DNA from: Candidatus Latescibacterota bacterium
GTDB taxonomy: Bacteria; Latescibacterota; UBA2968; GCA-2709665
Length of the DNA: 64,000 nt
Assembly (NCBI GenBank): GCA_965248435.1
Contig: OZ252100.1
Span: 1,792,001-1,856,000 of the forward strand
Direction of reading: 5' to 3'
Of this stretch, positions 1 through 37,775 are shown piece by piece (the stretch's first letter is position 1; every line of letters begins with the position of its first letter). The position numbers and the translations under genes are program-made. Under the pieces are notes generated by a model, which saw only the letters and a program-made list of their open reading frames with translations, made no database searches and was not told the DNA's origin.

Positions 1-361
1 TCCCCCTAAACCGGAGGGTGCCGTCTGTATCAAACGCCGTCACGCGAAACCGCCGCTTCCCGGCGGCGATGTCGATGACCTCCCCTACGGCCAGGTTCCC
101 CCCCGGGATCGGAAAGTTCAGATCTCGCTCGATCGGCTGAATCTGCCCGGTATCCGCCTCTGTCACCCTCACCTGCAAGCGCTGAATCAACCCGCGCGAG
201 AATGAGGGTACACGCACGGAGATGAGCGCATTTCCGGCTTCGGACTGAAAAGCTGGTGCGAGGACCTTGAACGGCTTGCTGTCACATCCGATACCGGAGT
301 AGAACAGAATGACCCAGGTAAGGGAGAGTAGAAAAAGGAATCGGATTGGAGTCTTTGACAT
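1..361 (-). CDS. Putative lipoprotein, runs off the left window edge (partial)
   Basis: Hand translation from ATG at 361: MSKTPIRFLFLLSLTWVILFYSGIGCDSKPF... Basic N-terminus, hydrophobic stretch and lipobox-like GIGC; open to position 1. Not in the ORF track because it has no stop. Confidence 0.7.
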   Translation of the reverse strand, partial: MSKTPIRFLFLLSLTWVILFYSGIGCDSKPFKVLAPAFQSEAGNALISVRVPSFSRGLIQRLQVRVTEADTGQIQPIERDLNFPIPGGNLAVGEVIDIAAGKRRFRVTAFDTDGTLRFRG

Positions 362-403
362 TTGTCGATGTTGTGGGAGTATAGGCAGTATTGCCGACTT
401 GCG

Positions 404-2554
404 TCAACCCTCGTGCTGCGCCTTCAGTCTTTCCAGCCGCCTCGAGAGTGATTCTATACGATGGGCTTCTCGCCCGTTCCAAAGTCTGAAAAATGCCTCA
501 TACGAAGAGATCGCGTTGCTCAGATCGCCCCGCTGCTCGAACACCTGCCCCAAATTGAAATAGATCTCCGCCTGACTGGAATCAACGGCGATTGCGTGGG
601 AAAAGGCCTCCACGGCGTCGCTGAAACGACCATCCGAAACGTATGCATTACCTAAAGCGTTCAAAGCCTCGAGATGGTTGGGATCCAGCCTTAGGGCCTT
701 CAGTGCTGAAAGCGTTGCCTGGTCTGCATCTCCCGTAAGCCGATGGAGGACGCTCATGTTTGCGTGGGCGGCAGGCAGATCGGGCCGATAGGTAACGGCC
801 TTCTGAAACGCCGCCAGGGCTGCATCTCGCTCCCCCGCCGACGCCAGGATTGAGCCTATATTGTTGTAAGCAATACCCGACCGAGGGTTCAGCTTCAAGG
901 CCCGGCCGTATGCTTCCAGTGCCGATTCGGTGTCCCCCGTCCCTCGCAGCGCGTCTCCGAGGCCGTTCCACATGCCTGGCGAGTTCGGATGGTAGGCGAG
1001 TCCCTGCTCGAAGTCTGCAAGGGCCTGGCCGTGCATCCCGAGCGCATCGTACGCTCGGCCTCGCATAAAGAAGGCGTCTTCATCAAAGGCTCCCCAGGAA
1101 AGTGCCGACCCGGCCTCCTGGATCGCTTCCGACCACCGGGATTCCGCGAACGCGAGTCGCAGCTGGAGGGCGTGGCGGTCGAACCCGATCTGTCGAGCAT
1201 TCAGCCAGATCCCGGCAACGAGGACGGCAGCCGCACCATAAACGACACCGCGCACCCACGGCCCGCGCTTCTCCCTCACCGGGCTGACCAGGCTGATCCC
1301 TGCCAGACTCAGGTAGAACGGCAGCCACGCTGCCGGAAATTCTCGTGGAAAGCTGAAGAGGCTGTTAATCACAGCTGCCAGGATCGCGCAAATCAGGACC
1401 CCGCCGATCAGCCGTCGCTCGGGCCTCTTGAGCAACGCGATCCCCATGCGCCCCGCAGTGTAGAGGAGAAAGAGATAGAGGCCCAGACCCAACGTTCCCA
1501 TTTCCGCCCAGATCCAGAGAAGGTCGTTGTGCGGCCTGTGAGAAACCGTCCCGGGGTCAATCAGATCGCCCTGGGCAAAGGCCGGATACGCTAGACGCCA
1601 GTTTCCGGCACCTACTCCTATGATCGGCCTGGCAGAAACCATCTCCAGCGTCCTTTTCCACATCGTCAGCCGGCCCCTGTCCCCACCGTCGTGAAACACC
1701 GAAGATACCGCGCCTTGAATAGATTGCTTGTTGTCCCACATCGCCTCCCCCTCTCCCTTCCGGATCTCCGCGGGAAGCGTCCCCAGACCGAGGGTCAGCA
1801 GAATAGCGACGGAGAGGGCAGCCAGTCTTGGTCTCGATGTTAACGTTTTCAATCCGTCCCGAAATTGGCGTCTGCCGTGAATCACGCTCAACACGCCGAC
1901 GCAGATCAACGCAAATCCAATCCCGATCCAGGCCCCTCGAGAGCGTGTTCCGAGCAGGAAGGCGCCTTCAAACCCCAGCGCCGCACCCCAGATAAGGATT
2001 GAGGAGCTTCGCTTACAGTTATACCAAACCCAGAATGTGAGGGGCAGCATCCCCACGAGATAAGCCGCGGCGATATTCCGGTGCCCGAGCGTCGCGCTTG
2101 GCAATCCCGCTGTCGGCACCCACGTCCGTGCCCAGCCAAAATATTGCGCGACCCCGAAAATCGACAGAATGGCCGCCGCCGCACTCGCGGCCGTCAGCAC
2201 CTTTTTGAAACCATTCCGGTCCAGGCCGTTCAGAAGGAACAGAAAAAAGAGGGCGAACCCGGTGTGCGTCGAAATCGCGAGGAGAGAAGCCGTTCGGTTC
2301 ATGGCGCCCGTTGTGGAAATAATCTCGGCCAACAGAAACGCCAGTACGGGCAGGACGAGGGGGGACCATTTCCACGATGTCCCTCTCGCCAGGCTCCATA
2401 CAACCATGCCCGACAGGGCGCACACCTGAAGGCAGAGCAGTTGAGGAAGTAACGCGAACCGGTTGACCCCGTGAAGGTGCGCGATCGGAATCAAGACGAC
2501 CGCGGCGACACCGATCCAGAGAGAGACTCGCGTATGTGGGCTTTGGGCTTCCAT
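404..2554 (-). CDS. O-antigen ligase-like (Wzy_C) membrane protein with C-terminal TPR repeats (paralog 0 of 8)
   Basis: 716 aa with many TM helices. Motifs PSATLGHRN, TRSRGAWIG, DRGRLTMW, GVGAGNW, RPHNDLLWIWAEMG, then TPRs (AYNNIG, ALNALG, IYFNLG). Confidence 0.88.
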   Translation of the reverse strand: MEAQSPHTRVSLWIGVAAVVLIPIAHLHGVNRFALLPQLLCLQVCALSGMVVWSLARGTSWKWSPLVLPVLAFLLAEIISTTGAMNRTASLLAISTHTGFALFFLFLLNGLDRNGFKKVLTAASAAAAILSIFGVAQYFGWARTWVPTAGLPSATLGHRNIAAAYLVGMLPLTFWVWYNCKRSSSILIWGAALGFEGAFLLGTRSRGAWIGIGFALICVGVLSVIHGRRQFRDGLKTLTSRPRLAALSVAILLTLGLGTLPAEIRKGEGEAMWDNKQSIQGAVSSVFHDGGDRGRLTMWKRTLEMVSARPIIGVGAGNWRLAYPAFAQGDLIDPGTVSHRPHNDLLWIWAEMGTLGLGLYLFLLYTAGRMGIALLKRPERRLIGGVLICAILAAVINSLFSFPREFPAAWLPFYLSLAGISLVSPVREKRGPWVRGVVYGAAAVLVAGIWLNARQIGFDRHALQLRLAFAESRWSEAIQEAGSALSWGAFDEDAFFMRGRAYDALGMHGQALADFEQGLAYHPNSPGMWNGLGDALRGTGDTESALEAYGRALKLNPRSGIAYNNIGSILASAGERDAALAAFQKAVTYRPDLPAAHANMSVLHRLTGDADQATLSALKALRLDPNHLEALNALGNAYVSDGRFSDAVEAFSHAIAVDSSQAEIYFNLGQVFEQRGDLSNAISSYEAFFRLWNGREAHRIESLSRRLERLKAQHEG

Positions 2555-3949
2555 TTATCCGGGCATCCAGCCAAAGGTCTGAGCCATTTCCTCAAACAGA
2601 CCACCTACCATCTGATTGATCGCCTCCTCCCACACCTGCTCCCGCTCGATCACATTGAGGTAACTCGTCCGGTCATCACTCGAAGTCGGGAAAAGCCTTA
2701 GCCCGCGGCTCTGCCTTCCCGTACCGGTCACCTGGGCGGACAACATCCGCTCTTCATCTCGCCGGTCTATCACCCGCACGTCGGCCTGCATCAGGGTGCG
2801 CGTCTCGGGAATTCCGATCAACAGCGGCACATTGGGCCGTGCGGATCGATTCGCCTCGTAACGCAGAACCCGTCCCGTGATCACGACGTCTACGTTGCTT
2901 ACCTGAGCCAGACGCATCGCCGCATCCGGGTCCAGAAATTCGGTCCCCTTGCCGATGTCTACGACCCGAACGTGCCCATAGCCTCCCAGGACCGTTCGAA
3001 TCCGATCGGCCACCATGTCCCCTGCCCCCTGTTGCTCAAAACCTGAGAAATTAACGACGGCCACGCGCACAGTAGTTTCCCTGTCCCGATCTACGGAGAT
3101 CCTCCTTACACGTCCTCCGAAGAATTTCTTCGCCTTTCCACCCAGCGTGGTATGGATCCGAAACCCGGCCATTCCCGAAAGGTTGGGGAGATCCTTACTG
3201 ATCCCCTTTTCCACGCCGACCTCCAGGCGGATGCCCCACAGGTTCATCTGACCGCCGAAGGCGGCCCGTTCAGTTCGGCCTCCGGCCGTTCTCGGTTCGT
3301 TCCAGTATTCGGCCGTCATCGTAAAGATCTGGCCGCGTCCCACCTCCACACCACCGCCGTAGATCAGGCCGGTCTGCCGCATTCCGGACGAAATCAGATA
3401 GCCCGCGTTCAATCGAAATCCCACGGCCTCCTTGTTGATGTCGAACAGCAACCGGGATGCGATTTCTCTGGAATCTCTGCGGTAGGGCCTTACGTTCAGC
3501 GCCTCACGACCGCCATAGCCGTAAGGGTGTGTGGCCATTAGACTCAATCCATAGTAAACGGAGGAAGGAAACCGGGCCGGAAATCCGAATTTCATTGCAG
3601 TCGTGATGTCCCCGGTCCCGTATTTCGTCAATCCCCCTGCAATGTCCAGTAACAGCGGGAAGCTCACCGAGATGTCTACCCCGTTCGCCAGGCCGTAGCC
3701 GAGTCCGAGGTGGCCCGTCAGGGAGGTCCCGTCACCCACTTTTGAAACATCGATCCGGTAGGCCTCATTCAGATAGCGCAGGTTGAAACCTCCCTTCCCC
3801 AGGGGCTCCGCTGAATCGATACGGAACAGCCCTTCTGCCATCGGCACGGGGAACGGAGGAGCGACATTGGCGGCCAGTACACTCTGCGCCCTCGCCTGCC
3901 CCGCCTGGAATAGACACAGGACCGTTATCATCAGGGAAAGCTGTCTCAT
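2555..3949 (-). CDS. Exported protein: putative outer-membrane beta-barrel N-domain plus CsgG/TolB_N-like alpha/beta C-domain
   Basis: Signal peptide ARA|QS. Alternating amphipathic strands (GLGYGLANGVDISVSF, GFRLNAGY, GGGVEVG). C-terminal RVAVVNFS...DVVITGRVLRY...ADVRVID pattern resembles CsgG-like domains. Confidence 0.5.
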   Translation of the reverse strand: MRQLSLMITVLCLFQAGQARAQSVLAANVAPPFPVPMAEGLFRIDSAEPLGKGGFNLRYLNEAYRIDVSKVGDGTSLTGHLGLGYGLANGVDISVSFPLLLDIAGGLTKYGTGDITTAMKFGFPARFPSSVYYGLSLMATHPYGYGGREALNVRPYRRDSREIASRLLFDINKEAVGFRLNAGYLISSGMRQTGLIYGGGVEVGRGQIFTMTAEYWNEPRTAGGRTERAAFGGQMNLWGIRLEVGVEKGISKDLPNLSGMAGFRIHTTLGGKAKKFFGGRVRRISVDRDRETTVRVAVVNFSGFEQQGAGDMVADRIRTVLGGYGHVRVVDIGKGTEFLDPDAAMRLAQVSNVDVVITGRVLRYEANRSARPNVPLLIGIPETRTLMQADVRVIDRRDEERMLSAQVTGTGRQSRGLRLFPTSSDDRTSYLNVIEREQVWEEAINQMVGGLFEEMAQTFGWMPG

Positions 3950-4608
3950 GGCGCCTGTAACTCCTCTATCTTTCGAATCAGGTCTGGAGGGGTGAGTTGA
4001 TTCTGCAGGTAAGACGCTTCATATCCATCATCCAGCAGGTTCAGATGATGCAGGACATTGTCTGGATCGGGTGAGTCCGGCGTGGCCACGAACCGGCCCA
4101 GGAAGAAGAGGGCCTCAGCCACCGTCAAGTGGACATCCCGAAAATCGATATTGTCGTGAGAGGAGAAATAGACGGGATCCAGTGAAAGCGCCTGGTTGCC
4201 CGATATCCGGGCATCCTCATAATTGCCAAGAGCCAGCTCGAGACCGGACAGACCGACATACGCATCCGCGTTTCGCGGGTCTGCCCTCGTCGCCGTTAAG
4301 AAATTTTCCCTTGCGCTCTGCAGCAGTTTGTTCCTGAGTTGGCTGTCCACCTCCTGCCCGGCCTTGAGAAAGTTCAGCCACCCCAGGCCGTTGAAGGCCT
4401 CCGAAAAACTCGGGTCAAGGCTCAAGGCATTGTTGAACAGCTCCTCGGCCTTGTCAAGCTCGGTGTCTTTGTAAGACTCCCATCCCTCGAAGGTCAGCGT
4501 CTCTGCAGAACCGAATGTGCCGCCCTTTCCCGTGCCTCCCCCGCACGCGGTCAGAAACGCAGCGAAGGACGCGAGCAGAATGACAAGAATTCTATTTGAC
4601 TTGATCAT
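3946..4608 (-). CDS. TPR-repeat lipoprotein
   Basis: Start reassigned to ATG 4608 (MIKSNRILVILLASFAAFLTACGGG, lipobox LTAC). TPRs: ALSLDPSFSEAFNGLG, ADPRNADAYVGL. Confidence 0.8.
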   Translation of the reverse strand: MIKSNRILVILLASFAAFLTACGGGTGKGGTFGSAETLTFEGWESYKDTELDKAEELFNNALSLDPSFSEAFNGLGWLNFLKAGQEVDSQLRNKLLQSARENFLTATRADPRNADAYVGLSGLELALGNYEDARISGNQALSLDPVYFSSHDNIDFRDVHLTVAEALFFLGRFVATPDSPDPDNVLHHLNLLDDGYEASYLQNQLTPPDLIRKIEELQAP

Positions 4609-4625: not shown

Positions 4626-7600
4626 CTACTTCAGAAGCAGCATCTTCATCGTCATTACCGCGCCCTCTGTCTCCAGGCGATAGAAGTAGATCCCGCCGGC
4701 AACCGAGCGCTGGACCGCGTCCCTGGCATCCCACGATATCGCGTATTGTCCTGGTTTCATGGGCTCTGAAAGCAGTCTCCGGACTTCCTGTCCCAGCATA
4801 TTGTAGACAGTCAGACGGACCATCGTCCGCTCCGGAATCTCAAACCCGATCGTGGTCGCAGGATTGAAGGGATTCGGAAAGTTCTGATGCAGGGCATATT
4901 CGGACGGAATCGGAATCAGATGTGTCAGGTCGATCTCTCGCTCCATCACTGCAGCATTGCCCGCAAGATCTGTCAGTTCGAGACGCAGGACGCGATCTCC
5001 CGGGTCGAACGTCTCGTCTGGCGCCCACACCACCGTGCCCTCCTCCGCCCCGTAGCTCGCCTCCACCTGTCTTCCGTCAACCGTCAGATGGATCGATCTA
5101 GAATCGATCCCACTCCCGGTCTCCTCCACCGGAATGGCCAACACACCTCGGCTCGCAATCACCTCCGGCTCGGCAGGGATGGGCGAAACCTCGTCAAGAA
5201 ACAGGCCGTATCGGCCGAACGCCGGGAAGGTTCCCGTCGTCCCCTTCCCGACGAAACGCCACTGCCCGAAATCCTCGTCCCAATGATAAACCCCCAGGTG
5301 ATCTCGCCCGGCGAGAGCTGAGTTGAAGCGAATTTCACCCTCGCCCCGGATGTCACCCTCCGTTGCGTGAACCCAGTAGACTTCGGAGGCCGGCTGTAGT
5401 GCGCCGTGAACGACCTCTACTCCGGGGCTTCTGCTGTCTGTTCGCCTCCGCTGCGGAATGATGGCGATAATCGAAGGTTTGGCTAGCGCCCCGGACGGCA
5501 GGGCGACGGTCAAACTCCGATTGGAGATCACAAACCCCGACTGAATTCCCGCTTCCTGGATCTCGAGTCGAACGGTGTCTGTGAGTGCAATACGCGTGGT
5601 CTCTGTGATGCCGGTGGCCGAAATCTCCACGCTTCCGATCACGTCATCTCCGAGCACGACGTCCCCGACCCACATCCCTTCCACGCCTGCAACCTCATTC
5701 ACGGTGACGGGCGCCGGTTTCGTATCCGGATCGTCACCGACCTGCACAACCAAAAAGGGATCGCTCAGCAGCTCCCTCCTGGAGATCACAAACACGTCCA
5801 AGAAGTTTTTGCGCACGGGGTTCGCGACCAGTGAGATTTCCAACAGGCCTCCGGGCGCAGCACCGGATCCCCCAACGACCTGAACGGGTGAGGCGAGCGT
5901 AACACGCTCGTCGCCCGTCACCCGGTCCTGGACCTGGACCTGAAAAACGATGGCCCCGGCGTTGCCGAAGAAGCCCGCGATGGGGCGCAAGATGGCATTC
6001 TGCTGGTCGATTTCCACACCCACGTTTTGATTCCCGTTCGAAGACCAGTCCAGATTTTGAGAATTCCCTGAGATCAAGAAAGAATTAAGGTCGATCGTCG
6101 TGTCCTGATCCGCCGTCAGCGTGATCGCGATCTGATCCACCACCTGGAGCGTACCCGCGCCACCCTGCGGTACCACAAAGACCCTCAGGCTATCCGTGTC
6201 GCTTCTGCCGCTTACCGTATCCGTCGCAGTGATCTCGACAAACGTGTTGCCCTCCTGAAGACCGACCAGGACGACTTCCCGCGTCGTCGGGAAGGCGAAA
6301 ACGACCGTCGGGTCCACCGAGTTCGCATCCCAGCGCACGCTGTTGGGATCGCCCACCTGGATGAATTGGACGAGGTCTATCGTATCCCGCCCTCCCTGCT
6401 CCACGGTTACGGAACCACCTGTATCGAGCAGAACACTGCCCGGGTTCAACACGATCACACGCATCGTGTCGTTTGCGGCATTACCAGCAGGGTCTGCAAC
6501 TGTAAAGACGATCTCCTCCACGCCATTGCCAACCGCGGGCGCGGTGAAGACAGTACTGTGAGTTGAGGTGTTGATACTGACCGACACACCGACCTGACCC
6601 GAGGCCGTCCAGGTCATATCAGAATCGGTGTTGTTGGCGTCGAAGTAATAGTCGTCGAGGTCGAGCGTGCTCGTCGTGTTCGCCAGGATGATCAGATCGG
6701 GAAGTCCGCCGGCAACCGGGATTCCAGTAACGGGCGAGGCGGAGTAAATTCTCACGGAAAGGGTATCGAACAGGGCGGTCGGGTCCGTCACGGTCAGGGT
6801 TGTCTGCCGGAAACCTACAGAATCGGGTGCAGAACCGACCTGTAGTTGACGATTGGTGAGCGCGCTGCCGATGAGCTGGACCAAAGAAACCGGCGTTGCG
6901 GACCAGTTGAGCAACTGCTTGGGCGTGTCCAGGTCATTCACGAGCGTGTCCAGCGCAACGGTTGAGACACCTGCCCCGGCGCTAACGCCTATCTTCAGAC
7001 CCTGACTTCCGTACGGTTCGATCACCTCGGGGGCCTGGGGCTCCTCCAGGGGCATCACGCTGACTCTAATCGACTGCACATCCGTCCCTCCAGATGGGTC
7101 TCGCGCCACGACGTCCACCATTCGGGTACCCATAAATGGCGGCACCGCCGTGATCGAAATCCGCCTGTTGTCCGGGCTCACGTCAAACGCAATGCTGTCC
7201 GCACCAGAGAAGGAAAACTGGAGAGCCTCGAACAGGTCATCCACATCGCGAACGAAGTCAGGCAGGTCCAGGGTCTCCTGGCCCAGGATTCCGATTTCGA
7301 TGTCGGGAAACGCCTGGATGTACTCCGGAGGATCGTTCACGGAAGTAACGATGACCACCACCTGCACCGTATCCGTCAACGTGAACCGATCTTCCACGAC
7401 AAACACCCTGGTTTCCGTCCCAAAGTAGTTGGGTTCTGCAGTAAAGGTCACGCGCTGGTTTTGATCGATGAAGGCGAACGTCTTCGTATCGGAGTCAGGC
7501 GAAGAAAACGTCAGGACTTCCCCCGGATCCGGATCGATGGCGACGAGCACTAGGCTCGAATCCCGTCCATCTTCCAGAAACTGAATCGTATCGGGAATGG

Positions 7601-8525: not shown

Positions 8526-8631
8526 AAGCTTGTTTCCGATTTGGAATGGGTGATTCGCGTGTATGCACAAACGGGCGAAACAGAAAATGGAAGATCTTTT
8601 TGACCGGCTATACGAGGTCCCCCCTGGGAAA

Positions 8632-8647
8632 TGCAATTCGCGTGCCA
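8632..8647 (-). promoter_or_regulatory. sigma54 (-24/-12) promoter
   Basis: Minus strand TGGCAC-GCGAA-TTGCA is an exact match to TGGCAC-N5-TTGC, about 105 nt upstream of the GTG at 8525. Confidence 0.75.
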
Positions 8648-8791
8648 TAGACGGCCTGTTCGACGGTGGGAAACGGGAGGAAAAAAATTCAGCATCTGGA
8701 TAAAATATAGAGAACTCAAGGGTTTGGTGCTACCCGTGCCCGGCCGAGGGGTTCCAGGCCGATGGGGTGGGGGATCGGGACGGAGCCAAGG

Positions 8792-14279: not shown

Positions 14280-14649
14280 GTTACGAACTCCTTCCTTGGA
14301 CTATTAAACGACCTGATGAAACGGTTGAAAACGAACTGCTCCGGGAGCCTCCGGCCTGCTCCGACGTCCTTATCGTCTCAGCCGGTCGACTCGGTTCGGG
14401 TGAAAGACCAAATGAAAACGATTGTCCGATCCAAAAAATTCAGTCGGTTGGGTCTGTGTGAGCATAGATATGCCCGGCATACTTTGTCTGAGTAGCGCTG
14501 TGCGCAGACCAACCCTAAGAGTTCTTTGGCACCACAAAGGTTTGCACGTGGCCTCGTAGCCAGGGAAAGGCGCGTTAGATCAATCCGGATCTACCGATGT
14601 TCTATAGACCTGAATTTCATTACAACATTCCGTACCGATGTCCTGGCGG

Positions 14650-14678
14650 GTTGTATCCTTTACTCCTCCATGTGTCAA
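14650..14678 (-). promoter_or_regulatory. sigma70-like promoter for protein A
   Basis: Minus strand TTGACA-17 nt-TACAAC, implying a ~360-nt 5' leader. Confidence 0.5.
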
Positions 14679-15159
14679 GTTGCCTGAGTCAGCATCCGTT
14701 CATTTCTGTAACATTCGAGGCGAAACAAAAGGGCATACTTCTCCCACTAACGAAACACCCATCTTGTGTACGTCCTGCCGTGCGTATGTCGCCAGGCGCG
14801 CAGGCGCACTCTACCCGCAGATGCAGTTCAACACCTGGCGTCCCGTTTCTACCTGTGGGCGGACGGATCCCTGCACGGCACCCGCCCGCGACGGCAACGG
14901 GTTGTCCTCACAAACTCCCTTGAAGGAGGCCTTCAGAAAGGTCGCTTGCAGCCTGCCTCGGCAGGCAAAGTGTCAAAGATCGATTCAGGTTTCTTGACGC
15001 ATTAGGCTACTTATACTTGATATCGATGTTGAGATCCGCAGACTGTCCGATGCTTCTGCATCTCGCTCTTCTTCTTAACCTCGAAACATGTTTTGCTCCG
15101 TGAACGTATCTGTCCCTGCCCATACCGACCTTGTGACAGGTATGGTGATGCCCCCAGTT

Positions 15160-15666
15160 GAGCGCCGTAGGCTCAACACCCCAAAAAGGGGCTTTGGTAG
15201 CCTGCATCCCGTACTAACCAGGCAGGCGGAGTGTCAAAGATCCTTCGATCTGATCAGCGGTTGTCTCAGATGTAGATGTACTGGTCCGAGTCCCCGCGAT
15301 TTGATGCGGTTAGCCCTATGTTCCGCTGGAACGAATGCGGCTAAGGGACATACTGCCATCCTACCTCCCGCAGCTCTACTCGGCGGGACACGTTTCAAAG
15401 ATCAAGGGTTGACGAGCAAACCTCGAAGGGAGCTGAGGTCTAGAGCATTCAGGCACAGATAACGCTCGTCCGACTGACACATCCTTGCCTATGCAAGCCG
15501 TGGCTGCATCATCCAGGCCCAGTACAATTCGTCTGTGCAGTTCCGAGCACGAGCTGCAGATTTCTCATTTGCCGGATCCTACGCTCAGTGCTCTTCGAGT
15601 TCCTCCCCCCGGTCCGTGATCGTGTTGTGTAACAGGCGTGACGTCATATATAGATCCATACATCCT
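15160..15666. repeat. Tandem direct repeat, copy 1 (~510 bp, non-coding)
   Basis: Aligns by eye with 15671-16179. Right half nearly identical; left half diverged, with indels. Confidence 0.9.
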
Positions 15667-15670
15667 TAGC

Positions 15671-29114: not shown

Positions 29115-31253
29115 ATGGCGAACCGACCAACCCATCGGCACGCAACTGAAGGCGATACACCCGAACGGGTGACCCGACTCTGCTTTCTGTTCCTTTTCGT
29201 CCTGGTCCCACTCGTCTACCATTCCGAGGTTTTCAGTTTCGCCCTGCTTCCAAAGCGACTCATTCTCCAGGTCTTGTTGCTGGTTTCGGCTATCTTCTGG
29301 GTCTTTGGTTCAAGTCGCGCTTCGATACATAAGACAAGCCTGAACAACCCCGCCCTCCTTTACTTCCTGGTTTCACTCATCGCCTTTACCCAGGTAATCA
29401 ACCCGGTGGAGGGGCTGATCAACCTCAGCCACCAGCTCACTTTTCTGATGCTCTTCCTTGTCCTGGTCAGCACCTTTCAGGTCTCGTCCATCCCGGATCT
29501 CCTTCGCGCGGTGGCGCTCGTCGGTATCTTTGTTTCGATCATCGGAATCATGGAAGCGCGTGGTTTCGATCTGCCCTGGTTTCCGGTTTCCAATGGGCGT
29601 CCGAGCGCGACCTTCGCCTACCGAAACCTCGCTGCCTCGTATTTGATCATGAGCATTCCGTTGAGCGCCGCGCTCTCCCTGACCAGCAAGAGTCATAAAG
29701 ACTTCCTTCTTGGTCTGGTCTCGACAGGTTTGATGGTCGTATTCCTTATTTACACTAGAACGCGGGGTGCCTGGGCTGGCCTGGCTGGAGCAGTCACTGC
29801 GATGGTTCTGCTCCTGGCCTTTGCAAAGGTCAGATGGTCCACGTCGTTCGACGTCTCCAAACACGAGCTACTGAGTCGAAGGGTCCTCACACCCCTGCTC
29901 GTCGTTCTTGCTACATCGATCACACTCTCGTTGCTGCCGCCGGTGATCGCCTCCCAACAAAGTAGAGGCATTGATGAGAAGAAGCAGGACCTGCTCGCGG
30001 CGCTCGCTTCCGTGAAAATCCCGGGCGCCGACAGGGGTCGAAAGGCCATGTGGAGTCACACCCTGGAAATGATTGAGCATCATCCCCTACTCGGTGTTGG
30101 ACCCGGAAACTGGCAGTACCACTATCCCAAATACGATGGCGGGGATATGTTGACCAGCGATTCGGCCCCCCAGCGACCGCACAACGATTTTCTCTGGATC
30201 GCCGCTGAGATCGGTCTGATCGGCCTGTCGGCATACCTTGTGCTTCTTCTGTTCACGGTGAAGGCTGTCCTCTCCATCCTGCGAAAACCCCGACAGCCGT
30301 TGCACGCGATGTATGCCGCGGCGTTCTTTACAAGCCTCCTGGCGATGTTGGGACACAGTCTTTTCAGCTTCCCACGAGAACGATGCGAGACCTCTCTCCT
30401 TTTCTGGGCGGCTGTCGCCATCCTTGCCCTCTTGGACACCCCTCGACCTTCTATCCCGCGGAGGATCTCGTCATCTCCGTTGCGCCGCAATGCGATCAAG
30501 CTCATCCCGATACTCCTCGTCCTTTCAACCTGGATCACCGTCCGCCATCTTCAGTTCGACGTTCACTACTTGCAGGCGCGCCGATACGAAAAGGGAGGTG
30601 ACTTCCGTGCTACGCTCCCGGAGGCCCAAAAGGCACTCTCCTACGGCCCGTTCGACCCTCAGGCCTTTCTACTCCTGTCCAAAGGCCACCAGGCGGCCGG
30701 GCAGTTTCGGGAAGCAAGGGAAGATCTACTCGAGGGTCTGAGCTACCACCCTCATTCCATTCAGTTATTGGGCGATCTGGGGAACTGCTACGCATTCTTG
30801 GACAGCCTGGATCGCGCGGAGCATCTCTTTCGGAACGTACTGGAGATCTTTCCCGGCTACTATCAAATGTATAACAACCTCGGCGGTGTCTACCAGAAAC
30901 GGGGTGAAATCGACAAGGCAATAAAGACCTACACGACTGTCCTGGAAAGAGACCCGAAATACATAGAAGCCTACAGCAACCTTGGGCTGGCCCTTCTGAG
31001 TGCGGATCGAGCGGACGAGGCCATTCAAGTCTATCTAAAGGCGCTGGAGGTCGCTCCGGGGGATGCCGTCCTGCACCACAACCTGGGCGATGCCTACTAT
31101 CATAAAGGCCAAAGCGACCCGGCAGCGCTGCCGCTGGCCCTGGCGGAATATGAGCGTTTTCTGAAACTCTGGAGAGGTGCGCGGCAGGTTCGAGAGACCG
31201 CGCGTAATCGGATTCTGGAGATACGTAAAAGCGGCCACGGGGTGACGGAATGA
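29115..31253 (+). CDS. O-antigen ligase-like/TPR protein (array member 4)
   Basis: 712 aa; PSATFAYRN, YTRTRGAW, IDEKK, DRGRKAMW, RPHNDFLW, TPRs. Confidence 0.88.
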   Translation: MANRPTHRHATEGDTPERVTRLCFLFLFVLVPLVYHSEVFSFALLPKRLILQVLLLVSAIFWVFGSSRASIHKTSLNNPALLYFLVSLIAFTQVINPVEGLINLSHQLTFLMLFLVLVSTFQVSSIPDLLRAVALVGIFVSIIGIMEARGFDLPWFPVSNGRPSATFAYRNLAASYLIMSIPLSAALSLTSKSHKDFLLGLVSTGLMVVFLIYTRTRGAWAGLAGAVTAMVLLLAFAKVRWSTSFDVSKHELLSRRVLTPLLVVLATSITLSLLPPVIASQQSRGIDEKKQDLLAALASVKIPGADRGRKAMWSHTLEMIEHHPLLGVGPGNWQYHYPKYDGGDMLTSDSAPQRPHNDFLWIAAEIGLIGLSAYLVLLLFTVKAVLSILRKPRQPLHAMYAAAFFTSLLAMLGHSLFSFPRERCETSLLFWAAVAILALLDTPRPSIPRRISSSPLRRNAIKLIPILLVLSTWITVRHLQFDVHYLQARRYEKGGDFRATLPEAQKALSYGPFDPQAFLLLSKGHQAAGQFREAREDLLEGLSYHPHSIQLLGDLGNCYAFLDSLDRAEHLFRNVLEIFPGYYQMYNNLGGVYQKRGEIDKAIKTYTTVLERDPKYIEAYSNLGLALLSADRADEAIQVYLKALEVAPGDAVLHHNLGDAYYHKGQSDPAALPLALAEYERFLKLWRGARQVRETARNRILEIRKSGHGVTE

Positions 31254-33523
31254 GGCCAGACTCCTCCAGCGTAGTAGCGATCTCGCTTGGTGCGGCAGCC
31301 GTCCTGATTCCCATCGTTTACCTGCCGGCGACGTTTGACTTTCCACTTCACGCCCGTCTCTTCATCCTCCAATGTCTTTTGATCGTGGGTCTTTTGGGCT
31401 GGGCTATCCGTGCCTTTGAGATGGGTCAGACATCTTGTTCTCCTCTCACCCTCCCACTGATCGTCTACACCGGCATCTCACTCGCCTCGATCACCTGGTC
31501 GACGAACCCTGTAGATGGCATCGTCCAGGGCAGCAGGGTTTTCGCATTTTCATTCCTGGCCCTGCTCGCGGCACACGCGATCAGTCCAAGATTCATACGC
31601 GCCGTCTACGCGGCGGTGGGGGTTGCAGGGGCGGTCGTCTCGCTGATCGGCATCTCGCAATACTTCGGCTGGTCAATCGCCAACAAGATCCCCACAGTTG
31701 GCAATCCCAGTGCCACCTTCGGCTACCGTAATATTGCCGCGAGCTACATCGTCGTGGCCATCCTGCCCGGGGCTGCCCTCGCCTGGACGGCCTCAACGCG
31801 TCGTGCCCAAACGGCCGGCTTTCTGTCAGTTGCCCTGATGGGTCTTTTCCTGATCTACACCAGGACGCGCGGCGCCTGGCTGGGCCTTGCGGGCTCGCTC
31901 TTCGTGGGAATCTTTCTGCTGGTCTGGATTCGGGTTCGATCAGGATCGGACTTGATCGGACTCGCACGTTCCCGTACTCGACTCCTCTTGCTAACAGCCG
32001 CCCTTTTGGTGATCGGGCTCGGTGCGCTTCTCCCACATAGCATGCAACGCGAGGGGAAGTTCAGGTTCGACGAGCGAAAAACGGATGTCGTCACCACCCT
32101 GAGCAAAACATTTTCTCCTTCAGACTCCCGGGGTCGCCTCACCGTGTGGGGCCATACGCTGGAAATGGTAATGGACCATCCGCTGCTCGGTGTCGGTCTT
32201 GGGTCCTGGCAGTACGAATACCCACGCTACGATCGAGGAGATTGGATCACTCACAACGTGGCCCCCCAGCGCCCCCACAACGACCTCTTGTGGATCCTAT
32301 CTGAAACCGGAATCCTCGGTCTTGCCGCTTACTTGTGGATCCTTCTTACGCTGCTGAAAAGTGTTCGCAATAACATCAAGAATCACCCCGACTCACCCCA
32401 GACAACGCTGATTCTCGGTATCAGCCTTGGGATCCTCGCCCTCCTTGGACACAGTATGTTCAGTTTCCCCAGGGAGCGACCGGCCCCTTCGATGATGTTT
32501 TGGATGGGGTTAGGTCTTGCGGTCCGACTTGCCCAGGATCGCGATTCAGACCCTCAACCCGTTTCGCTGCAGAAACCACTACTCGGCGCCACGGCTGCGC
32601 TGGTGGGTGTCGTGTTGATCTGTGGCGTGGTCTTGACCTACCGCCAGGCAAGGTTCGACGCCCACTACCTCCAGGCGCATCTCGCTTGGCGAAAGGAGGC
32701 GTGGCCTAGCGTCGCGTCCGAGACTGGAAACGCCCTTCAGTGGGGTCCCTTCAACCACCGTGCCCTCCTGCTCCGGGGAATAGCATACTGGAAGTTGAAC
32801 CGCAGCGAGGACGCGGTGGAGGCCTACGGGACCTCGCTCAAGTATCACCCCCACGAGGGCCACGGTGCCCTCGCGGCCGCCTACGCCGATCTTGGCCGCG
32901 TTGAGGAAGCTGCCTCCCACTATCGCGTCGAACTCGATCTTTATCCGCGTTCTGCGGCCGCGGCCTACGGCCTTGCGAATGCCCTCGCCTCGAAGAAAGA
33001 TTGGCCCGGGGCATCGGAAGCCTACTTGAAGATCCGGCAGACACGTCCCGATGACCTCGAGGCCAGGTTGGGCCTGGCTGACGCCTACCGACATCTCGAG
33101 CTGTGGACAGAAGCGATCGCGCTATACAGGGGCATCTTGCAGACCGAACGGGCTACGGCCGACATCCAGATCAAGCTGGGGAGCGTCCTGCAGGCAGTTG
33201 GCGATCTGGCTGGCGCGATAAAGGCCTACTCCGAAGCCGTCAGCCTCTCGATGGAGGAGGATCCAAGGCCATACAATAATCTGGGCGCAGTCTACGCACT
33301 GGAGAATCGCTATGGAGAAGCCGAAAAAGCATACAAGAAAGCGCTTGAGCTAGACCCGGACTATGGACGTGCCTACCATAACCTGGGGGACCTCTATGCG
33401 GCACAAGGGAAGGCCAAGCCTGCAATAAGGGCCTATCAAGAATTCATCAAGAGATGGACAGGTGATCCCCGATTCGTCGAGCTCGCCGAAAGCAAGATTC
33501 AGGACCTGAAAGATCGACCCTGA
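31250..33523 (+). CDS. O-antigen ligase-like/TPR protein (array member 5)
   Basis: 757 aa, ATGA overlap with member 4; PSATFGYRN, YTRTRGAW, FDERK, SRGRLTVW, RPHNDLLW, TPRs. Confidence 0.88.
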   Translation: MRPDSSSVVAISLGAAAVLIPIVYLPATFDFPLHARLFILQCLLIVGLLGWAIRAFEMGQTSCSPLTLPLIVYTGISLASITWSTNPVDGIVQGSRVFAFSFLALLAAHAISPRFIRAVYAAVGVAGAVVSLIGISQYFGWSIANKIPTVGNPSATFGYRNIAASYIVVAILPGAALAWTASTRRAQTAGFLSVALMGLFLIYTRTRGAWLGLAGSLFVGIFLLVWIRVRSGSDLIGLARSRTRLLLLTAALLVIGLGALLPHSMQREGKFRFDERKTDVVTTLSKTFSPSDSRGRLTVWGHTLEMVMDHPLLGVGLGSWQYEYPRYDRGDWITHNVAPQRPHNDLLWILSETGILGLAAYLWILLTLLKSVRNNIKNHPDSPQTTLILGISLGILALLGHSMFSFPRERPAPSMMFWMGLGLAVRLAQDRDSDPQPVSLQKPLLGATAALVGVVLICGVVLTYRQARFDAHYLQAHLAWRKEAWPSVASETGNALQWGPFNHRALLLRGIAYWKLNRSEDAVEAYGTSLKYHPHEGHGALAAAYADLGRVEEAASHYRVELDLYPRSAAAAYGLANALASKKDWPGASEAYLKIRQTRPDDLEARLGLADAYRHLELWTEAIALYRGILQTERATADIQIKLGSVLQAVGDLAGAIKAYSEAVSLSMEEDPRPYNNLGAVYALENRYGEAEKAYKKALELDPDYGRAYHNLGDLYAAQGKAKPAIRAYQEFIKRWTGDPRFVELAESKIQDLKDRP

Positions 33524-35478
33524 TGTCCGACATTCGATCTGAAAAGACCTCCCGTCTTGTGGCCTTTGCCTGCTCGACCCTTCTGGTTCTGGTCCCACTG
33601 ATATACTGGACCAGCCTCAGGGACTATGTCCTTCCCCCAAAACTCATCGTCCTCCAAGCCGTCGTGGCACTGACGTTTGCGGCGTGTCTGATCATCAGAC
33701 CGGAGTCGATCCCTGTCCCTTCCTTCGGCCTGCCAGCCTGTGCCTACCTCATACTCAATTCAGTTTCGGTTCTCTACGCCGCAGATCCCGTCGTCGGCCT
33801 CCACGAATTGAACAAGATGCTGAGCGGTTTTCTGCTCTTCCTGCTCGTCGCCAACTGGCTCCGCCCACGCGACGTTCCCCCAATCCTCGTGGCGGGAGCC
33901 GCGTGCGGAATCCTTGTCTCACTTGTGGGCATCTCAGAGTACCTGGGATGGCGACCCTTTATCATTCCCTCAGCCGGGCTCCCGAGCGCAACCTTCGGAT
34001 ACCGAAACCTGGCCGCTATGTACCTGATCCAGTCTATCCCGCTTTGCATCGGGTTGTTCGCGATTGCGCGCTCGAGAGGAATCGCGGTCCTGGCCGCTTC
34101 GTCCGGGGCGCTCATGCTCGTCTTCCTGATCTACACGAGAACGCGGGGTGCCTGGGCCGGCCTGATCGGAAGCTTGTTGATCACACTGGTCATCTGGACC
34201 GCAACACGATCACGAAGGCCTATCTCGCACGCGCGTTTGTCCGTCGCGAAGAAGATCAGCGCCGTTGGGGCCATCCTCCTCGTCGCGGCCATCGGCTGGC
34301 TGCCCTCCAACCTGCCCAAAATCGGGCCTCAGAGTATCGACGAAAAGAAGGCATCGATCGCTACGGCCTTCACATCCGTAGCCGAGCAAGGGGCTGGTCG
34401 GGGCCGCCTCATCCTGTGGAAGCATACATTGGAGATGGTCCAGGATCACGCAGCCCTCGGCGTCGGCCTGGGCAACTGGGCGGTACACTATCCTCTTTAC
34501 GACCGGGGAGACCCAATCACCTTCTCCGCCGCGCCGGAGCGTCCTCACAACGACGCCCTCTGGATTCTCTCCGAGGTCGGCCTTCTGGGATTCATATGCT
34601 ATATCTGGCTAGCGATTTTGGTCCTCAAGGCCGTTTGGAGACACCTGGCTTCGTCGAATCAGCAGACCCGATGGATGGCCGCCGCCTGTTTTGCGAGTCT
34701 CCTGGCCATATCGGGACACAGCCTCTTTTCGTTTCCTCGGGAACGGATTCCGCCCACCATGCTCTTCTGGTTGAGTCTGGGGCTCCTGGCTGCACTGGAG
34801 AGACCCGCTCGTAGGGTCTGGAGGGCCTCCGCGACCCGGGTGATGCTCATCCTGGCCCTCTTGCTGGCCCTCCTCCAGTTCCGGTTCACGATGCGCGTGT
34901 GTGACTTCGAAGCTCACACGCAGGCCGCGAGAAACGCGCAGCTCGAAAACGACATGCCCAAAATGTCTCACGAAGCGGCGGCAGCACTCGACGCGGGGGC
35001 CTTCCATCCAGAGGCGATTCACTTGAAGGGCTATGCGTTAAACCAAATGGGGGAATTTCCGAAATCCAGAGACCTGTATCGTTCAGCCCTTCATAAGCGG
35101 CCGTACGATATCCAACTGCTCAACGGAATGGCCATCGCCTCTCAAAATATCGGACACCACGAGGAGGCACTCGGTCTTTATGGCCGAGCGCTCGAGCTGA
35201 TACCGAATCTTATCGATATCCGCTACAACCAGGGTGGGCTCTACACAAAAATGGGTCGCCTGACCGAAGCGATCAACGTCTATCAAAAAATCATTGAGCA
35301 GCGGCCCGAAGAAGCTCAGGCTCATTTTGCCCTGGGTGATCTGTCTAACCGCCTGGGACGCCTCCTGGACGCTGTGGAGTCATACAGGGCCTTCCTCAAA
35401 TACTGGAAGGGTGACGCCCGATATGTAGAAATGGCCCAAACTCGAATTTCAAGAATTGAATCTTTGAAGATGAGATGA
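33523..35478 (+). CDS. O-antigen ligase-like/TPR protein (array member 6)
   Basis: 651 aa, TGATG overlap; PSATFGYRN, YTRTRGAW, IDEKK, GRGRLILW, RPHNDALW, TPRs. Confidence 0.88.
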   Translation: MSDIRSEKTSRLVAFACSTLLVLVPLIYWTSLRDYVLPPKLIVLQAVVALTFAACLIIRPESIPVPSFGLPACAYLILNSVSVLYAADPVVGLHELNKMLSGFLLFLLVANWLRPRDVPPILVAGAACGILVSLVGISEYLGWRPFIIPSAGLPSATFGYRNLAAMYLIQSIPLCIGLFAIARSRGIAVLAASSGALMLVFLIYTRTRGAWAGLIGSLLITLVIWTATRSRRPISHARLSVAKKISAVGAILLVAAIGWLPSNLPKIGPQSIDEKKASIATAFTSVAEQGAGRGRLILWKHTLEMVQDHAALGVGLGNWAVHYPLYDRGDPITFSAAPERPHNDALWILSEVGLLGFICYIWLAILVLKAVWRHLASSNQQTRWMAAACFASLLAISGHSLFSFPRERIPPTMLFWLSLGLLAALERPARRVWRASATRVMLILALLLALLQFRFTMRVCDFEAHTQAARNAQLENDMPKMSHEAAAALDAGAFHPEAIHLKGYALNQMGEFPKSRDLYRSALHKRPYDIQLLNGMAIASQNIGHHEEALGLYGRALELIPNLIDIRYNQGGLYTKMGRLTEAINVYQKIIEQRPEEAQAHFALGDLSNRLGRLLDAVESYRAFLKYWKGDARYVEMAQTRISRIESLKMR

Positions 35479-37775
35479 GGAATCCTGTGTCCCGAACCGC
35501 CAAGCTGGGCTCGACACTGATCACCGTTTCCCTTTCTGCGATGGTCGTGTCCGTGCCCCTTGTCTACATGGAAGGCGTGTATGAGTACGCCCTCTTGCCG
35601 AAACGCCTGGCCCTTCACCTTTTCATCACACTCGCCCTGATCGGCTGGTTCCTCCAATCCGGTTTGGGAAAAGACTTCAGACAGTGTTCAAGCCCGCTCC
35701 ACTTACCGATCATCTGTCTGCTGTGCGCCGCCCTGCTTTCCACGCCACGGACAACGCACCCGCTCGACTCCCTTGTACAGCTGGCGTATCAGGGGAGCTT
35801 CCTTGCCCTGTTCTGGATCGCAGCCCACGCGATGTCCGTCGGGCGCCTGGTAACACTCCTCTGGGCGAACGCTATTGTCGGTCTCCTCGTTGCCGTGATC
35901 GGCATCCTCCAGTACCAGGGTCTGGAGATTTTGCTGCGCATTCCCTCGAACGGCCAGCCGAGTGCAACCTTTGGTTACCGCAATTTCGCAGCCATGTACC
36001 TCGTCTGCGCCCTCCCGCTGAACGGAATTCTCTTTCTCACGACTCGCAGGGTGGCAGGCCTTCTTCTTTCCTCCGCTTCAGTGACCTTAATGGGCGTCTA
36101 TCTCATCTATACACGAACACGGGGCGCCTGGGCTGGTGCGATGGGAGCACTTCTCATTGTTGCCACAACGGTTGCCCTATACCCCGGTCTTCGGCAAACC
36201 CTTGTGAGTGCGCTGCGCGCAGGACGATGGCCGCTGAAGAGAAACCTCATAATCGGAGGCATTCTCTTTTGGATTATCCTTGGCGTCCTCCCCGCCCGCT
36301 TCCAGGGGATCGGACTGCAGCGCTTCGATGAGAAGAAGGCCGGAATTGGTTCAACAATCGCGTCTCTTACTCGTGGACGACCGGATCGCGGCCGTTTGGC
36401 AATGTGGCGAAATACCATCGACATGATTCGGGACAAACCCCTTCTCGGCGTGGGCCCCGGAGGCTGGAAGCGCGTTTACCCGGCTTACGACAGAGGAGCC
36501 ATGATCCGGCCCGATTCGTCTCCTAAACGCCCTCACAACGACTACCTCTGGATCGCCTCCGACCTCGGACTGATCGGTCTTGGCGTCACCCTATGGTTTC
36601 TGGTCGTCCTGTTTCGATCGCTCCTTGAGCTATCTCGGCATCCACTGGAATTCTGGCGCCTGACTGCCCCTATGTTCGCAATCTCCTTGCTGGCCACCTT
36701 CGGCCATGCCCTCTTCAGCTTTCCTCGTGAACAGCCACAAGCCGCCATGTACCCATATCTCCTTGCGGGGATCGTCGCGAGTGTCGTGTCGACACATCGA
36801 GTTAGAGCCGCTCCCGCATTTCTTTCTCCGCTTGCCCTCGGGTTGCTTTTCACCCTTCCACTTTCCGCTGGATGGCTTACCGCACGTCAGATCGGGTTCG
36901 ACAGACATTACCTTCAGGCCCACGTCGCCGAAGATCGGAGTGACTGGACGGATATGCTCCAGGCAAGCGAGGCTGCGGCGGACTACGGGATCTTTCGCCC
37001 CCACGTACTTGTGATTCAGGGAAGAGGTGAGGAAAAGAAAGGGAGGTACGACAAAGCGGAGAAGGCCTACCAGAGCGCCCTCGACTATGAACCTCACTCC
37101 TGGCACGCCTATAACGGGCTTGGCGTGGTATACAAGCGGCAACAGCGATACCAGGAGGCGCTCCACGCCTACAAACAGGCGCTGGAGATCTTTCCGTCGG
37201 CCCCCGCTGTGAGAAATAACCTGGGCGCGCTCTACCGGAGCTTGGGTGACCTGAAACGTGCGGAGGCGGAATATCGCTACGTGCTTCGCGGCGACCCGAC
37301 CAACGCGGGAACTCTGAACAACCTGGGGAATATTTACAAGGCCCGGGGTCAGCTGGACGATGCCAGGGTGACCTATTTGAAAGCGATCGAGAGCGACTCG
37401 ACGCTCGCGACCGCACACTTCAACCTGGCCGATCTTTATCGCCTGGAGGGTTCGTCCGGCGAGGCCATCACATACTATTTGAAGGCCGCCCGCTTGGCCC
37501 CACGCAACGCCTCGATCCCCTGGGGACTGGGGATGGCGCTTGAAGCAAGCGGAGACCTCGACGGGGCGGAATCGGCTTACCGCGAGGCCATTGCCATTCG
37601 CTACGATTTTCCGGAGGCCTACTTCAACCTGGGAAACGTGCTGTTCACGAGACACCTCTACAGGGAGGCCCTCGATGCCTATCGCAGCTTTATTGGCATT
37701 TGGGAAGGAGAGTTGAAATTCGAGAAATTTGCGAGGTCAAGAATCGAGGAGTGCGTCAAGAGGATAAAAAAATAG
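35475..37775 (+). CDS. O-antigen ligase-like/TPR protein (array member 7)
   Basis: 766 aa, ATGA overlap; PSATFGYRN, YTRTRGAW, FDEKK, DRGRLAMW, RPHNDYLW, TPRs. Confidence 0.88.
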   Translation: MRNPVSRTAKLGSTLITVSLSAMVVSVPLVYMEGVYEYALLPKRLALHLFITLALIGWFLQSGLGKDFRQCSSPLHLPIICLLCAALLSTPRTTHPLDSLVQLAYQGSFLALFWIAAHAMSVGRLVTLLWANAIVGLLVAVIGILQYQGLEILLRIPSNGQPSATFGYRNFAAMYLVCALPLNGILFLTTRRVAGLLLSSASVTLMGVYLIYTRTRGAWAGAMGALLIVATTVALYPGLRQTLVSALRAGRWPLKRNLIIGGILFWIILGVLPARFQGIGLQRFDEKKAGIGSTIASLTRGRPDRGRLAMWRNTIDMIRDKPLLGVGPGGWKRVYPAYDRGAMIRPDSSPKRPHNDYLWIASDLGLIGLGVTLWFLVVLFRSLLELSRHPLEFWRLTAPMFAISLLATFGHALFSFPREQPQAAMYPYLLAGIVASVVSTHRVRAAPAFLSPLALGLLFTLPLSAGWLTARQIGFDRHYLQAHVAEDRSDWTDMLQASEAAADYGIFRPHVLVIQGRGEEKKGRYDKAEKAYQSALDYEPHSWHAYNGLGVVYKRQQRYQEALHAYKQALEIFPSAPAVRNNLGALYRSLGDLKRAEAEYRYVLRGDPTNAGTLNNLGNIYKARGQLDDARVTYLKAIESDSTLATAHFNLADLYRLEGSSGEAITYYLKAARLAPRNASIPWGLGMALEASGDLDGAESAYREAIAIRYDFPEAYFNLGNVLFTRHLYREALDAYRSFIGIWEGELKFEKFARSRIEECVKRIKK

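Follow-up and report, generated by a model that had tools for sequence, protein, structure and literature searches.

Gene organization of the island

The window analysed here is a 64-kb stretch of the 5.67-Mb genome of a Latescibacterota bacterium (C1:1792001-1856000 of the source genome, labelled G000; positions are those of the window unless given with C1). It covers the larger part of a conserved, ~43-kb surface-coat island, in which membrane proteins combining a Wzy_C domain with C-terminal tetratricopeptide repeats (TPRs) are encoded beside giant secreted proteins. Seven genes of the Wzy_C+TPR family, recognized by Pfam and placed in an orthologue tree, follow one another on the plus strand: W1 (22317..24959, 880 amino acids (aa)), W2 (24976..27015, 679 aa), W3 (26954..29110, 718 aa by the longest open reading frame (ORF)), W4 (29115..31253, 712 aa), W5 (31250..33523, 757 aa), W6 (33523..35478, 651 aa) and W7, the last gene of the array (35475..37775, 766 aa). 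An eighth gene, W0 (404..2554, 716 aa), is encoded on the minus strand at the other side of the giant genes and forms its own orthologue group with genes of two relatives (G004 and G038). The original prediction of eight intact genes, seven of them in a mostly overlapping tandem, was confirmed at the ORF level: the Wzy_C match scores 64–82 bits in each (74.3 bits in W0) against the Pfam cut-off of 31.7, many TPR families are matched C-terminal of it in all eight, and the successive spacings in the array are a gap of 16 nt, an overlap of 62 nt, a gap of 4 nt and overlaps of 4, 1 and 4 nt. The island extends past the window edge, since a ninth Wzy_C+TPR gene (Wup, C1:1787077-1789458) and a gene for a Bac_transf/EPS_sugtrans phosphoglycosyltransferase (C1:1789615-1790856, ~1.1 kb from the edge) lie 1.1–4.9 kb before the window, together with a lipoprotein gene directly upstream of it.

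On the minus strand between W0 and the array lie the genes for the three giants, namely Giant 3 (4626..8648, 1340 aa), Giant 1 (8868..14279, 1803 aa) and Giant 2 (16489..21771, 1760 aa), the last being a paralog of Giant 1. The two largest are separated by a non-coding spacer (14280..16488), and Giant 2 is separated from W1 by a divergent intergenic region (21772..22316, read on the plus strand, towards the array).

Fold and topology of the Wzy_C+TPR proteins

An AlphaFold (AF2) model of W4, built from a 68-row alignment, is confident (pLDDT 92.5, pTM 0.91). Compared with 48,161 chains, it comes closest in structure to the O-antigen ligase WaaL of Cupriavidus metallidurans (7tpj_B; Z 23.8, root-mean-square deviation 4.3, 355 of 403 residues, model residues 13–443). 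WaaL was seen only in this wider structural search, as Foldseek of the whole model against the PDB returned TPR proteins only. Moreover, a profile of the membrane part (25 sequences) matches WaaL 7tpg_B with an E value of 6.8e-07. In the profile alignment, as counted from the printout, R217, R309 and H356 of the family pair with R191, R265 and H313 of WaaL, which we take to be its periplasm-facing catalytic residues. These three positions are invariant in all 68 aligned family members and in all 25 sequences of the membrane-part set. Simpler sequence searches were less sensitive: phmmer with the W4 membrane part alone gave no match among PDB sequences at E 10, and a search of the same sequences with the full-length family profile was swamped by TPR proteins. 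Judged by the W4 model, the nine paralogs are inner-membrane enzymes with a predicted 12-helix WaaL fold and a catalytic-type Arg/Arg/His set.

When W0 and W4, two of the nine, were scanned against NCBIfam, neither membrane part reached a curated equivalog: RfaL (NF012031) gave 31.7 bits for W0 against a cut-off of 277 and no match for W4, and the best family was IctB with 76.9 bits against a cut-off of 366.4. Many PglL-type proteins carry a Wzy_C_2 domain (PF11846) after Wzy_C; among the nine island paralogs this domain is above its cut-off only in Wup (34.3 versus 28.5 bits), W6 reaching 19.5 bits and the other window paralogs having no match.

W4 has 13 hydrophobic helices, of which 12 are WaaL-like and are followed by an Arg-rich linker, helix 13 and a TPR superhelix; the linker of 18 residues before helix 13 holds five Lys or Arg residues. 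The C-terminus of WaaL is cytoplasmic, and with one extra helix the TPR domain should face the periplasm, the linker before helix 13 being cytoplasmic. The periplasmic position proposed earlier for the TPR domains is thus the one predicted from the 13 helices and the Arg-rich linker.

Age and distinctness of the paralogs

The paralogs are 24–37% identical to the reference paralog W4. A tree was built from 37 membrane domains of four genomes in two families (the source genome, G004 and G008, all of one family, and G038). They fall into nine orthologue groups, none of which has more than one member in any genome; most groups have support of 96–100 in the Shimodaira-Hasegawa-like approximate likelihood ratio test, and the gene order is identical in all four genomes. 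Identity between orthologues is 47.3% in the TPR domain versus 50.5% in the membrane domain (21 pairs), and between paralogs 28.5% and 34.6%, respectively (36 pairs). Since nine collinear orthologue groups are found across two families, the array is older than the split of the families, and each member was kept thereafter. This points to nine distinct jobs rather than a recent amplification, and by sequence comparison the nine paralogs are old and non-redundant.

In the whole source genome there are 16 Wzy_C matches, 12 of which are long; all of these 12 carry TPRs, eight being in the window and four elsewhere. At metagenome scale the family has 3087 representatives at E <= 1e-30 among 1.84 billion, some of those listed being long TPR-only proteins.

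The giant proteins and the type IX secretion system

The three giant secreted proteins of the original prediction are real. Giants 1 and 2, which are 61% identical over their full length, carry Cohesin, Dockerin_1, FlgD_ig and Por_Secre_tail matches, and Giant 3 carries Big_9/PKD-like modules and a type IX secretion system (T9SS) type-A C-terminal domain (CTD). Scores of 40.4 and, for Giant 3, 27.6 bits lie above the TIGR04183 cut-off of 23, and PF18962 is matched with 30.1 bits against 27 for the two larger giants. The CTD of Giant 3 is 51% identical to that of Giant 1, and Giant 3 has orthologues in G004 and G038. All giants carry signal peptides. The body of Giant 1 is acidic, Cys-poor and all-beta, and the giants as a group are acidic and nearly Cys-free (Asp 8.3–8.8%, Lys 2.2–2.4%, Cys 0–0.1%). 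They contain 16–17% Ser plus Thr, compared with 11% for a set of 13 housekeeping proteins encoded in the window.

Each of the two larger giants has one clear cohesin match, some weaker ones and a dockerin of its own. In a cellulosomal scaffoldin, several cohesins dock dockerin-bearing enzymes. There are 14 dockerin matches genome-wide, and a surface lattice held together by cohesin-dockerin contacts is a conjecture. A model of giant residues 1–1150 was poor (13-row alignment, pLDDT 56.5, pTM 0.32) and its Foldseek list was set aside; a local cohesin match in this poor model (2vn6_A) had a TM score of 0.76 on the target. Leads from the ESM Atlas were weak for the giant, all scores being <= 0.85.

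Two T9SS parts were found in the source genome by a search that covered SprA_N and C25: a protein with SprA_N (91 bits) and a 1949-aa PorU-like CTD protein with Peptidase_C25 (251.6 bits). The giants therefore look like T9SS type-A cargo, and by their domains the SprA_N and C25 proteins fit a type IX system. The gene for the PorU-like protein lies ~40–55 kb downstream of the window (in the region C1:1893770-1910002), near a Wzx-like gene at C1:1907k and a gene for a 497-aa Wzy_C protein at C1:1909532. This region, with its C25 protein, flippase and short Wzy_C, may be an ordinary ligase or anchor-glycan locus.

Co-occurrence of array and giant genes in related genomes

The layout of the island is shared by the three relatives G004, G008 and G038, in which the array, the head-to-head giants, the 1340-aa giant, a TPR lipoprotein, a 464-aa protein, W0, a lipoprotein, the phosphoglycosyltransferase and Wup follow one another in this order. 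In addition, the N-terminus of a giant lies head-to-head with W1, a few hundred bases upstream of it, in nine loci from other assemblies. In the order-level set of 41 genomes (the source genome and 40 relatives), at least ten Wzy_C matches are found in seven genomes, the others having 0–6 and mostly one. The giant body (Giant 1 residues 1–1300) is present in exactly those seven, while the other 34 match only the last ~360 residues. A tie between the array and the giant CTD proteins is thus supported, both by the recurrence of the divergent junction in other assemblies and by a co-presence of 7/7 versus 0/34. In a phylum sample of 151 genomes, where at most seven paralog matches were scored per genome, 13 genomes have at least five matches to the paralog profile, and a giant-body match at E <= 1e-50 occurs in 11 of these 13 versus one of the 138 others. 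No order-level genome keeps the array or the giant body alone, over several apparent losses, and the internal order and the divergent junction are kept at 36–63% protein identity across two families.

These data bear on the view that the array and the giants are functionally unrelated, the enzymes acting on peptidoglycan, an exopolymer or the like beside the giants by accident. It would agree with the fact that no direct functional data tie the array to the giants and that the best NCBIfam match is IctB, far below its cut-off, but a junction and gene order retained at such low protein identity over two families make an accidental neighbourhood very unlikely.

Glycan genes around the island

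Among the 34 window ORFs scanned there is no Pfam glycosyltransferase or Wzx family; no search specific for Wzz was made. The original prediction had noted a lack of wzx, wzz and glycosyltransferase genes in the 64 kb. For glycosyltransferase and Wzx families the lack stands within the window, but it loses its meaning as an absence because the window edge cuts the island off from the glycan genes just upstream. Apart from the phosphoglycosyltransferase, a glycan cluster lies at C1:1762-1780k, 12–30 kb upstream of the window, with one GT2 and three GT4 glycosyltransferases, PMT_2, two carbamoyltransferases, two methyltransferases and an asparagine synthase. The cluster also encodes a 613-aa protein (C1:1777868-1779709, L001:15868-17709) that has a faint N-terminal match to PMT_2 of the GT-C type (E 0.0084) and clear C-terminal TPRs, and that may be a second kind of TPR-tailed membrane glycosyltransferase; a 452-aa PMT_2 protein is encoded near it (L001:6777-8135).

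Nearly all order-level genomes (40 of 41) encode a short Wzy_C protein (~480 aa) separate from the array. This protein can serve as an ordinary ligase and is, by this distribution, probably the likelier true ligase than the members of the array.

Intergenic regions and other genes

The divergent spacer between Giant 2 and W1 is 545 bp long and contains a promoter-like motif, CTTGACC-N17-TACATT, at 21843-21872, which faces the array. CTTGACC with a spaced TAC/TAT-type hexamer recurs in all ten homologous spacers from both families, and part of the motif occurs twice in G004 and G008. Downstream of it, a leader at ~21884-22000 is strongly conserved in the source genome, G004 and G008 and can form a long-range stem of ~20 bp. 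No covariation was detected in this fold, with three sequences only, and Rfam gave no family for the leader and none in the window except one tRNA. The leader may be a regulatory leader RNA of the array. Scans of the window for consensus promoters and terminators gave about as many matches as shuffled sequence.

The spacer of 2.2 kb between the two larger giants contains a tandem repeat of ~510 bp in two copies (15160-15666 and 15671-16179, 88% identical by blastn). The 3' 220 bp of the copies are nearly identical, stops and non-triplet indels occur in all frames, and no other copy exists in the genome. There is no ORF longer than 164 aa in this spacer; its seven small ORFs have no Pfam match, and no remnants of giant genes were found.

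Two smaller genes lie between W0 and Giant 3, both on the minus strand. The first (2555..3949) encodes a secreted protein of 464 aa that belongs to no assigned family, with a signal peptide and a beta-rich N-terminal half; it has no Pfam or NCBIfam match at 0.001, and its C-terminal half gives only faint LptE/TolB_N/CsgG-like matches (E 0.02–0.14). G004 (69% identity) and G038 (56%) have orthologues in the corresponding position, and the nearest ESM Atlas cluster consists of Latescibacterota hypothetical proteins (score 0.98). The second (3946..4608) encodes a small TPR lipoprotein with TPR_16 and TPR_2 matches, which probably starts at a Met codon at 4608 followed by a lipobox-like LTAC and has an orthologue of 53% identity in G038.

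The right flank of the window (38487-46430 and 53813-58424) contains sulfur-related genes, seemingly unrelated to the island: two PALP (cysteine-synthase-like) genes and genes for JAB, PAPS reductase, ThiF-rhodanese, a class-V aminotransferase and two redoxins. The genes compared with relatives, PALP, JAB and PAPS reductase, are syntenic there.

Discussion

Considering the fold of the enzymes and the CTDs of the giants, we tentatively propose, with a confidence that stops a little short of even, that the nine paralogs carry out en-bloc O-glycosylation of giant T9SS cargo in the periplasm, in the manner of the Wzy_C+TPR protein WsfB discussed below. Glycans linked to undecaprenyl diphosphate (Und-PP) would be started by the phosphoglycosyltransferase of the island, extended by the nearby glycosyltransferase cluster and flipped by a Wzx-type flippase encoded outside the island. 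The nine specialised transferases would then move these glycans en bloc in the periplasm, the likeliest acceptors being two or all three of the acidic, Cys-poor giants with their cohesin and dockerin modules, whose genes lie divergently next to the array. Through its TPR domain, each paralog would be directed to its own acceptor domain or site, or to a glycan already in place, and the giants, O-glycosylated in the periplasm, would be exported and anchored via the T9SS. Of this scheme, the data show the fold and the conserved residues, the one-to-one orthology of the paralogs, their linkage to the giants, the CTDs and two T9SS parts; we infer the topology of the TPR domains, the donor and, above all, the acceptor. 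An extension of it, in which the array would be an assembly line of nine ordered transferases each adding a different lipid-linked glycan block or serving a different giant domain, is an unlikely refinement.

Several observations weigh against periplasmic glycosylation of the giants as the task of the array. No result bears on the identity of the acceptor, whether protein, lipid or glycan, and WaaL-fold enzymes also ligate glycans onto lipid A-core and polymerise them. The three giants contain 10, 13 and 15 copies of the Bacteroidota sequon D(S/T)(A/I/L/V/M/T), which is about the number expected from their content of Asp, Ser/Thr and aliphatic residues. On the donor side, the phosphoglycosyltransferase carries in the source genome a frameshift that falls within the conserved catalytic region, near L002:9696-9699: the G004 protein aligns to it as residues 1–387 in one frame and 387–465 in another, so that the last ~79 residues are read in the other frame, whereas the orthologues in G004 and G038 are intact; the frameshifted sequence is identical in contigs from four runs of one sample. 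Wzx-like genes are found at C1:4k, 1907k, 2379k and 3422k only, none in the island and the nearest at C1:1907k. Furthermore, array and giants also occur apart. The source genome has two more copies of the giant body, both distant from any Wzy_C+TPR array (C1:4229684-4234777 and C1:4251518-4255713), one of them being a 1726-aa frame that aligns with query residues 2–1723 and so ends before the CTD and the other being split into ORFs of 746 and 697 aa; a giant copy at C1:794498 of G004 is likewise distant from any array. Conversely, the phylum-sample genomes G123 and G117 have an array and no giant match, and in G123 a contig end is only 911 bp away from the start of the array; genomes that lack the giant body (G002, G022, G024, G026 and G034) have single Wzy_C+TPR genes; and three of the 12 long paralogs of the source genome are dispersed among housekeeping or EPS-like (exopolysaccharide-like) neighbours.

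The co-occurrence itself has to be read with care. In the source genome, G004, G008 and G038 the flanks of the island are conserved as well, with HD/FliM on one side and PALP/JAB/PAPS/HlyD/PPDK on the other, and in G001, a genome of the same genus, an unrelated segment of 15 kb replaces the ~43-kb island as a block without any trace of paralogs or giants. This segment (C1:1152001-1169000 of G001), between the HD-domain and PALP genes, has three dockerin-like stretches, and the HD-PALP site seems, from the genes found there, to be a swappable surface-protein locus. With syntenic flanks and replacement of the whole island in one piece, co-occurrence adds little beyond adjacency, and the joint presence and absence may reflect one physical unit rather than functional coupling. 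What stays informative despite this behaviour, as far as genome comparison can indicate, is the joint loss pattern together with the internal order and junction kept between families. Thus the dedicated multi-enzyme system for protein glycosylation or anchoring that was originally predicted has gained ground through the WaaL fold, the predicted periplasmic TPR domains and the tie to giant CTD proteins, and has lost some through the block swap, which weakens the co-occurrence.

The same block behaviour would be expected if the paralogs were general periplasmic O-oligosaccharyltransferases for many envelope proteins and their position simply that of an old, vertically inherited surface island. 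Flanks that are syntenic over two families agree with this, as do the single Wzy_C+TPR genes in genomes without the giant body, the presence in the island of just three of the 21 FlgD_ig/CTD matches of the genome and the very large size of the family, some TPR-only proteins included. However, none of the 41 order-level genomes has the array or the giant body alone, and the head-to-head junction with its promoter-like motif is kept in 10/10 spacers, so we consider such a general role improbable.

The main rival, although rather unlikely in itself, is that the nine enzymes ligate or polymerise glycans on lipid or glycan acceptors. The product would be a capsule, a coat polysaccharide or an anchor glycolipid comparable to the A-LPS (anionic lipopolysaccharide) found in Porphyromonas. 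The TPRs would then scaffold the enzymes to the export or T9SS attachment machinery and a PorU-type sortase would fix the giants to the glycolipid, which makes the linkage real but indirect. WaaL, which is known to act on lipid A-core, indeed has the same fold and catalytic-type residues, and the genome encodes the C25 PorU-like and SprA-like proteins. The locus also encodes a secreted protein resembling outer-membrane proteins and two lipoproteins. One of the dispersed paralogs adjoins a set of EPS-like genes for heparinase II/III, UDP-glucose dehydrogenase, GT4, a short Wzy_C and Bac_transf. T9SS cargo of Porphyromonas is attached to A-LPS (PMC12704123, PMC7468200). On the other hand, one lipopolysaccharide (LPS) or anchor system normally has one ligase, and the short Wzy_C could fill that place in 40/41 genomes; nine conserved paralogs with paralog-specific TPRs fit many acceptors better than one lipid; and the island has no Wzx.

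Periplasmic O-glycosylation of the giants has a precedent in part. A review describes WsfB of Paenibacillus alvei as a Wzy_C+TPR protein and predicted S-layer (surface layer) O-oligosaccharyltransferase; its gene shares a cluster with those for an initiating transferase and a homologue of asparagine synthase (PMC2943079). The original prediction that the system is wholly undescribed in kind therefore does not hold, insofar as that review shows a Wzy_C+TPR protein in an S-layer glycosylation cluster. Together with WsaB and the TPR protein WsaA of Geobacillus stearothermophilus, WsfB represents the S-layer O-oligosaccharyltransferases of slg clusters. As far as descriptions can be compared, the island paralogs resemble WsfB in joining Wzy_C to C-terminal TPRs and in being encoded with genes for a phosphoglycosyltransferase, an asparagine synthase and surface proteins. 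Unlike the island, these systems are Gram-positive, have one enzyme per S-layer system and lack a T9SS, whereas here there are nine conserved paralogs, a diderm host of the FCB (Fibrobacterota-Chlorobiota-Bacteroidota) group and candidate acceptors with T9SS CTDs.

Similarities to the other Wzy_C-type enzymes are likewise partial. Like WaaL of C. metallidurans (PDB 7TPG/7TPJ), the paralogs have the 12-helix fold and the aligned Arg/Arg/His, but they add helix 13 and a predicted periplasmic TPR domain of 200–400 aa, score far below the RfaL cut-off and occur as 12 long copies per genome beside a separate short Wzy_C, unlike the pattern of one ligase per LPS. PglL, TfpO and PglS belong to the Wzy_C superfamily. 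In the periplasm they attach Und-PP-linked glycans en bloc to Ser/Thr residues, and their genes often lie beside the target gene (PMC3643930). The eight window paralogs share with PglL/TfpO a Wzy_C match above the cut-off, whereas PglL, TfpO and PglS act as one enzyme per system and Wzy_C_2 passes its cut-off only in Wup. Wzy polymerases usually have Wzx and a chain-length regulator in the same locus, unlike the island, which is without Wzx, no search for Wzz having been made.

Among T9SS-dependent coats, the nearest likeness is to TfsA and TfsB of Tannerella forsythia, two large surface proteins with T9SS CTDs that are O-glycosylated in the periplasm and that the giants resemble in size and CTD; display of this S-layer requires the T9SS (PMC4175972). 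A 2025 review still lists the oligosaccharyltransferase and the ligase of Bacteroidota O-glycosylation as undiscovered (PMC12871550). Since the paralog profile matched 0/120 other genomes in the phylum of an Aureispira-titled record at E 1e-50 (nine candidates scored per genome), the Wzy_C+TPR family is, on these profile searches, apparently not the missing general enzyme of Bacteroidota; the island also differs from that general system in that the sequon is not enriched in the giants. No description of Wzy_C+TPR arrays in Latescibacterota was found in the open-access literature.

An analogy may be drawn with eukaryotes. TMTC1-4 are transferases of the endoplasmic reticulum membrane with luminal TPRs that O-mannosylate cadherins, using a GT-C/PMT fold and adding a single mannose. 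As predicted for the island, several paralogous, lipid-sugar-dependent membrane transferases with TPRs on the non-cytoplasmic side go together with giant adhesion proteins of many beta-sandwiches. This is an analogy only, as the island paralogs have the WaaL fold and not GT-C/PMT.

Taken together, glycosylation of the giants by the array is plausible, partly supported and not wholly new in kind. Glycosylating enzymes for bacterial surface proteins are sought after, as a way to understand the cell envelope and as tools for glycoengineering, and the known oligosaccharyltransferase systems have one enzyme each. If the proposal is true, nine anciently diverged WaaL-fold/TPR enzymes would show how paralogs divide acceptor or donor specificity between them. 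If the assembly line is also true, it would be a multi-enzyme en-bloc protein glycosylation without a described counterpart and a first handle on protein glycosylation of the oligosaccharyltransferase type in an FCB-group phylum outside Bacteroidota. Heterologous expression makes the question testable despite the uncultured host, and the answer would bear on the envelope biology of the Latescibacterota, a widespread uncultured phylum.

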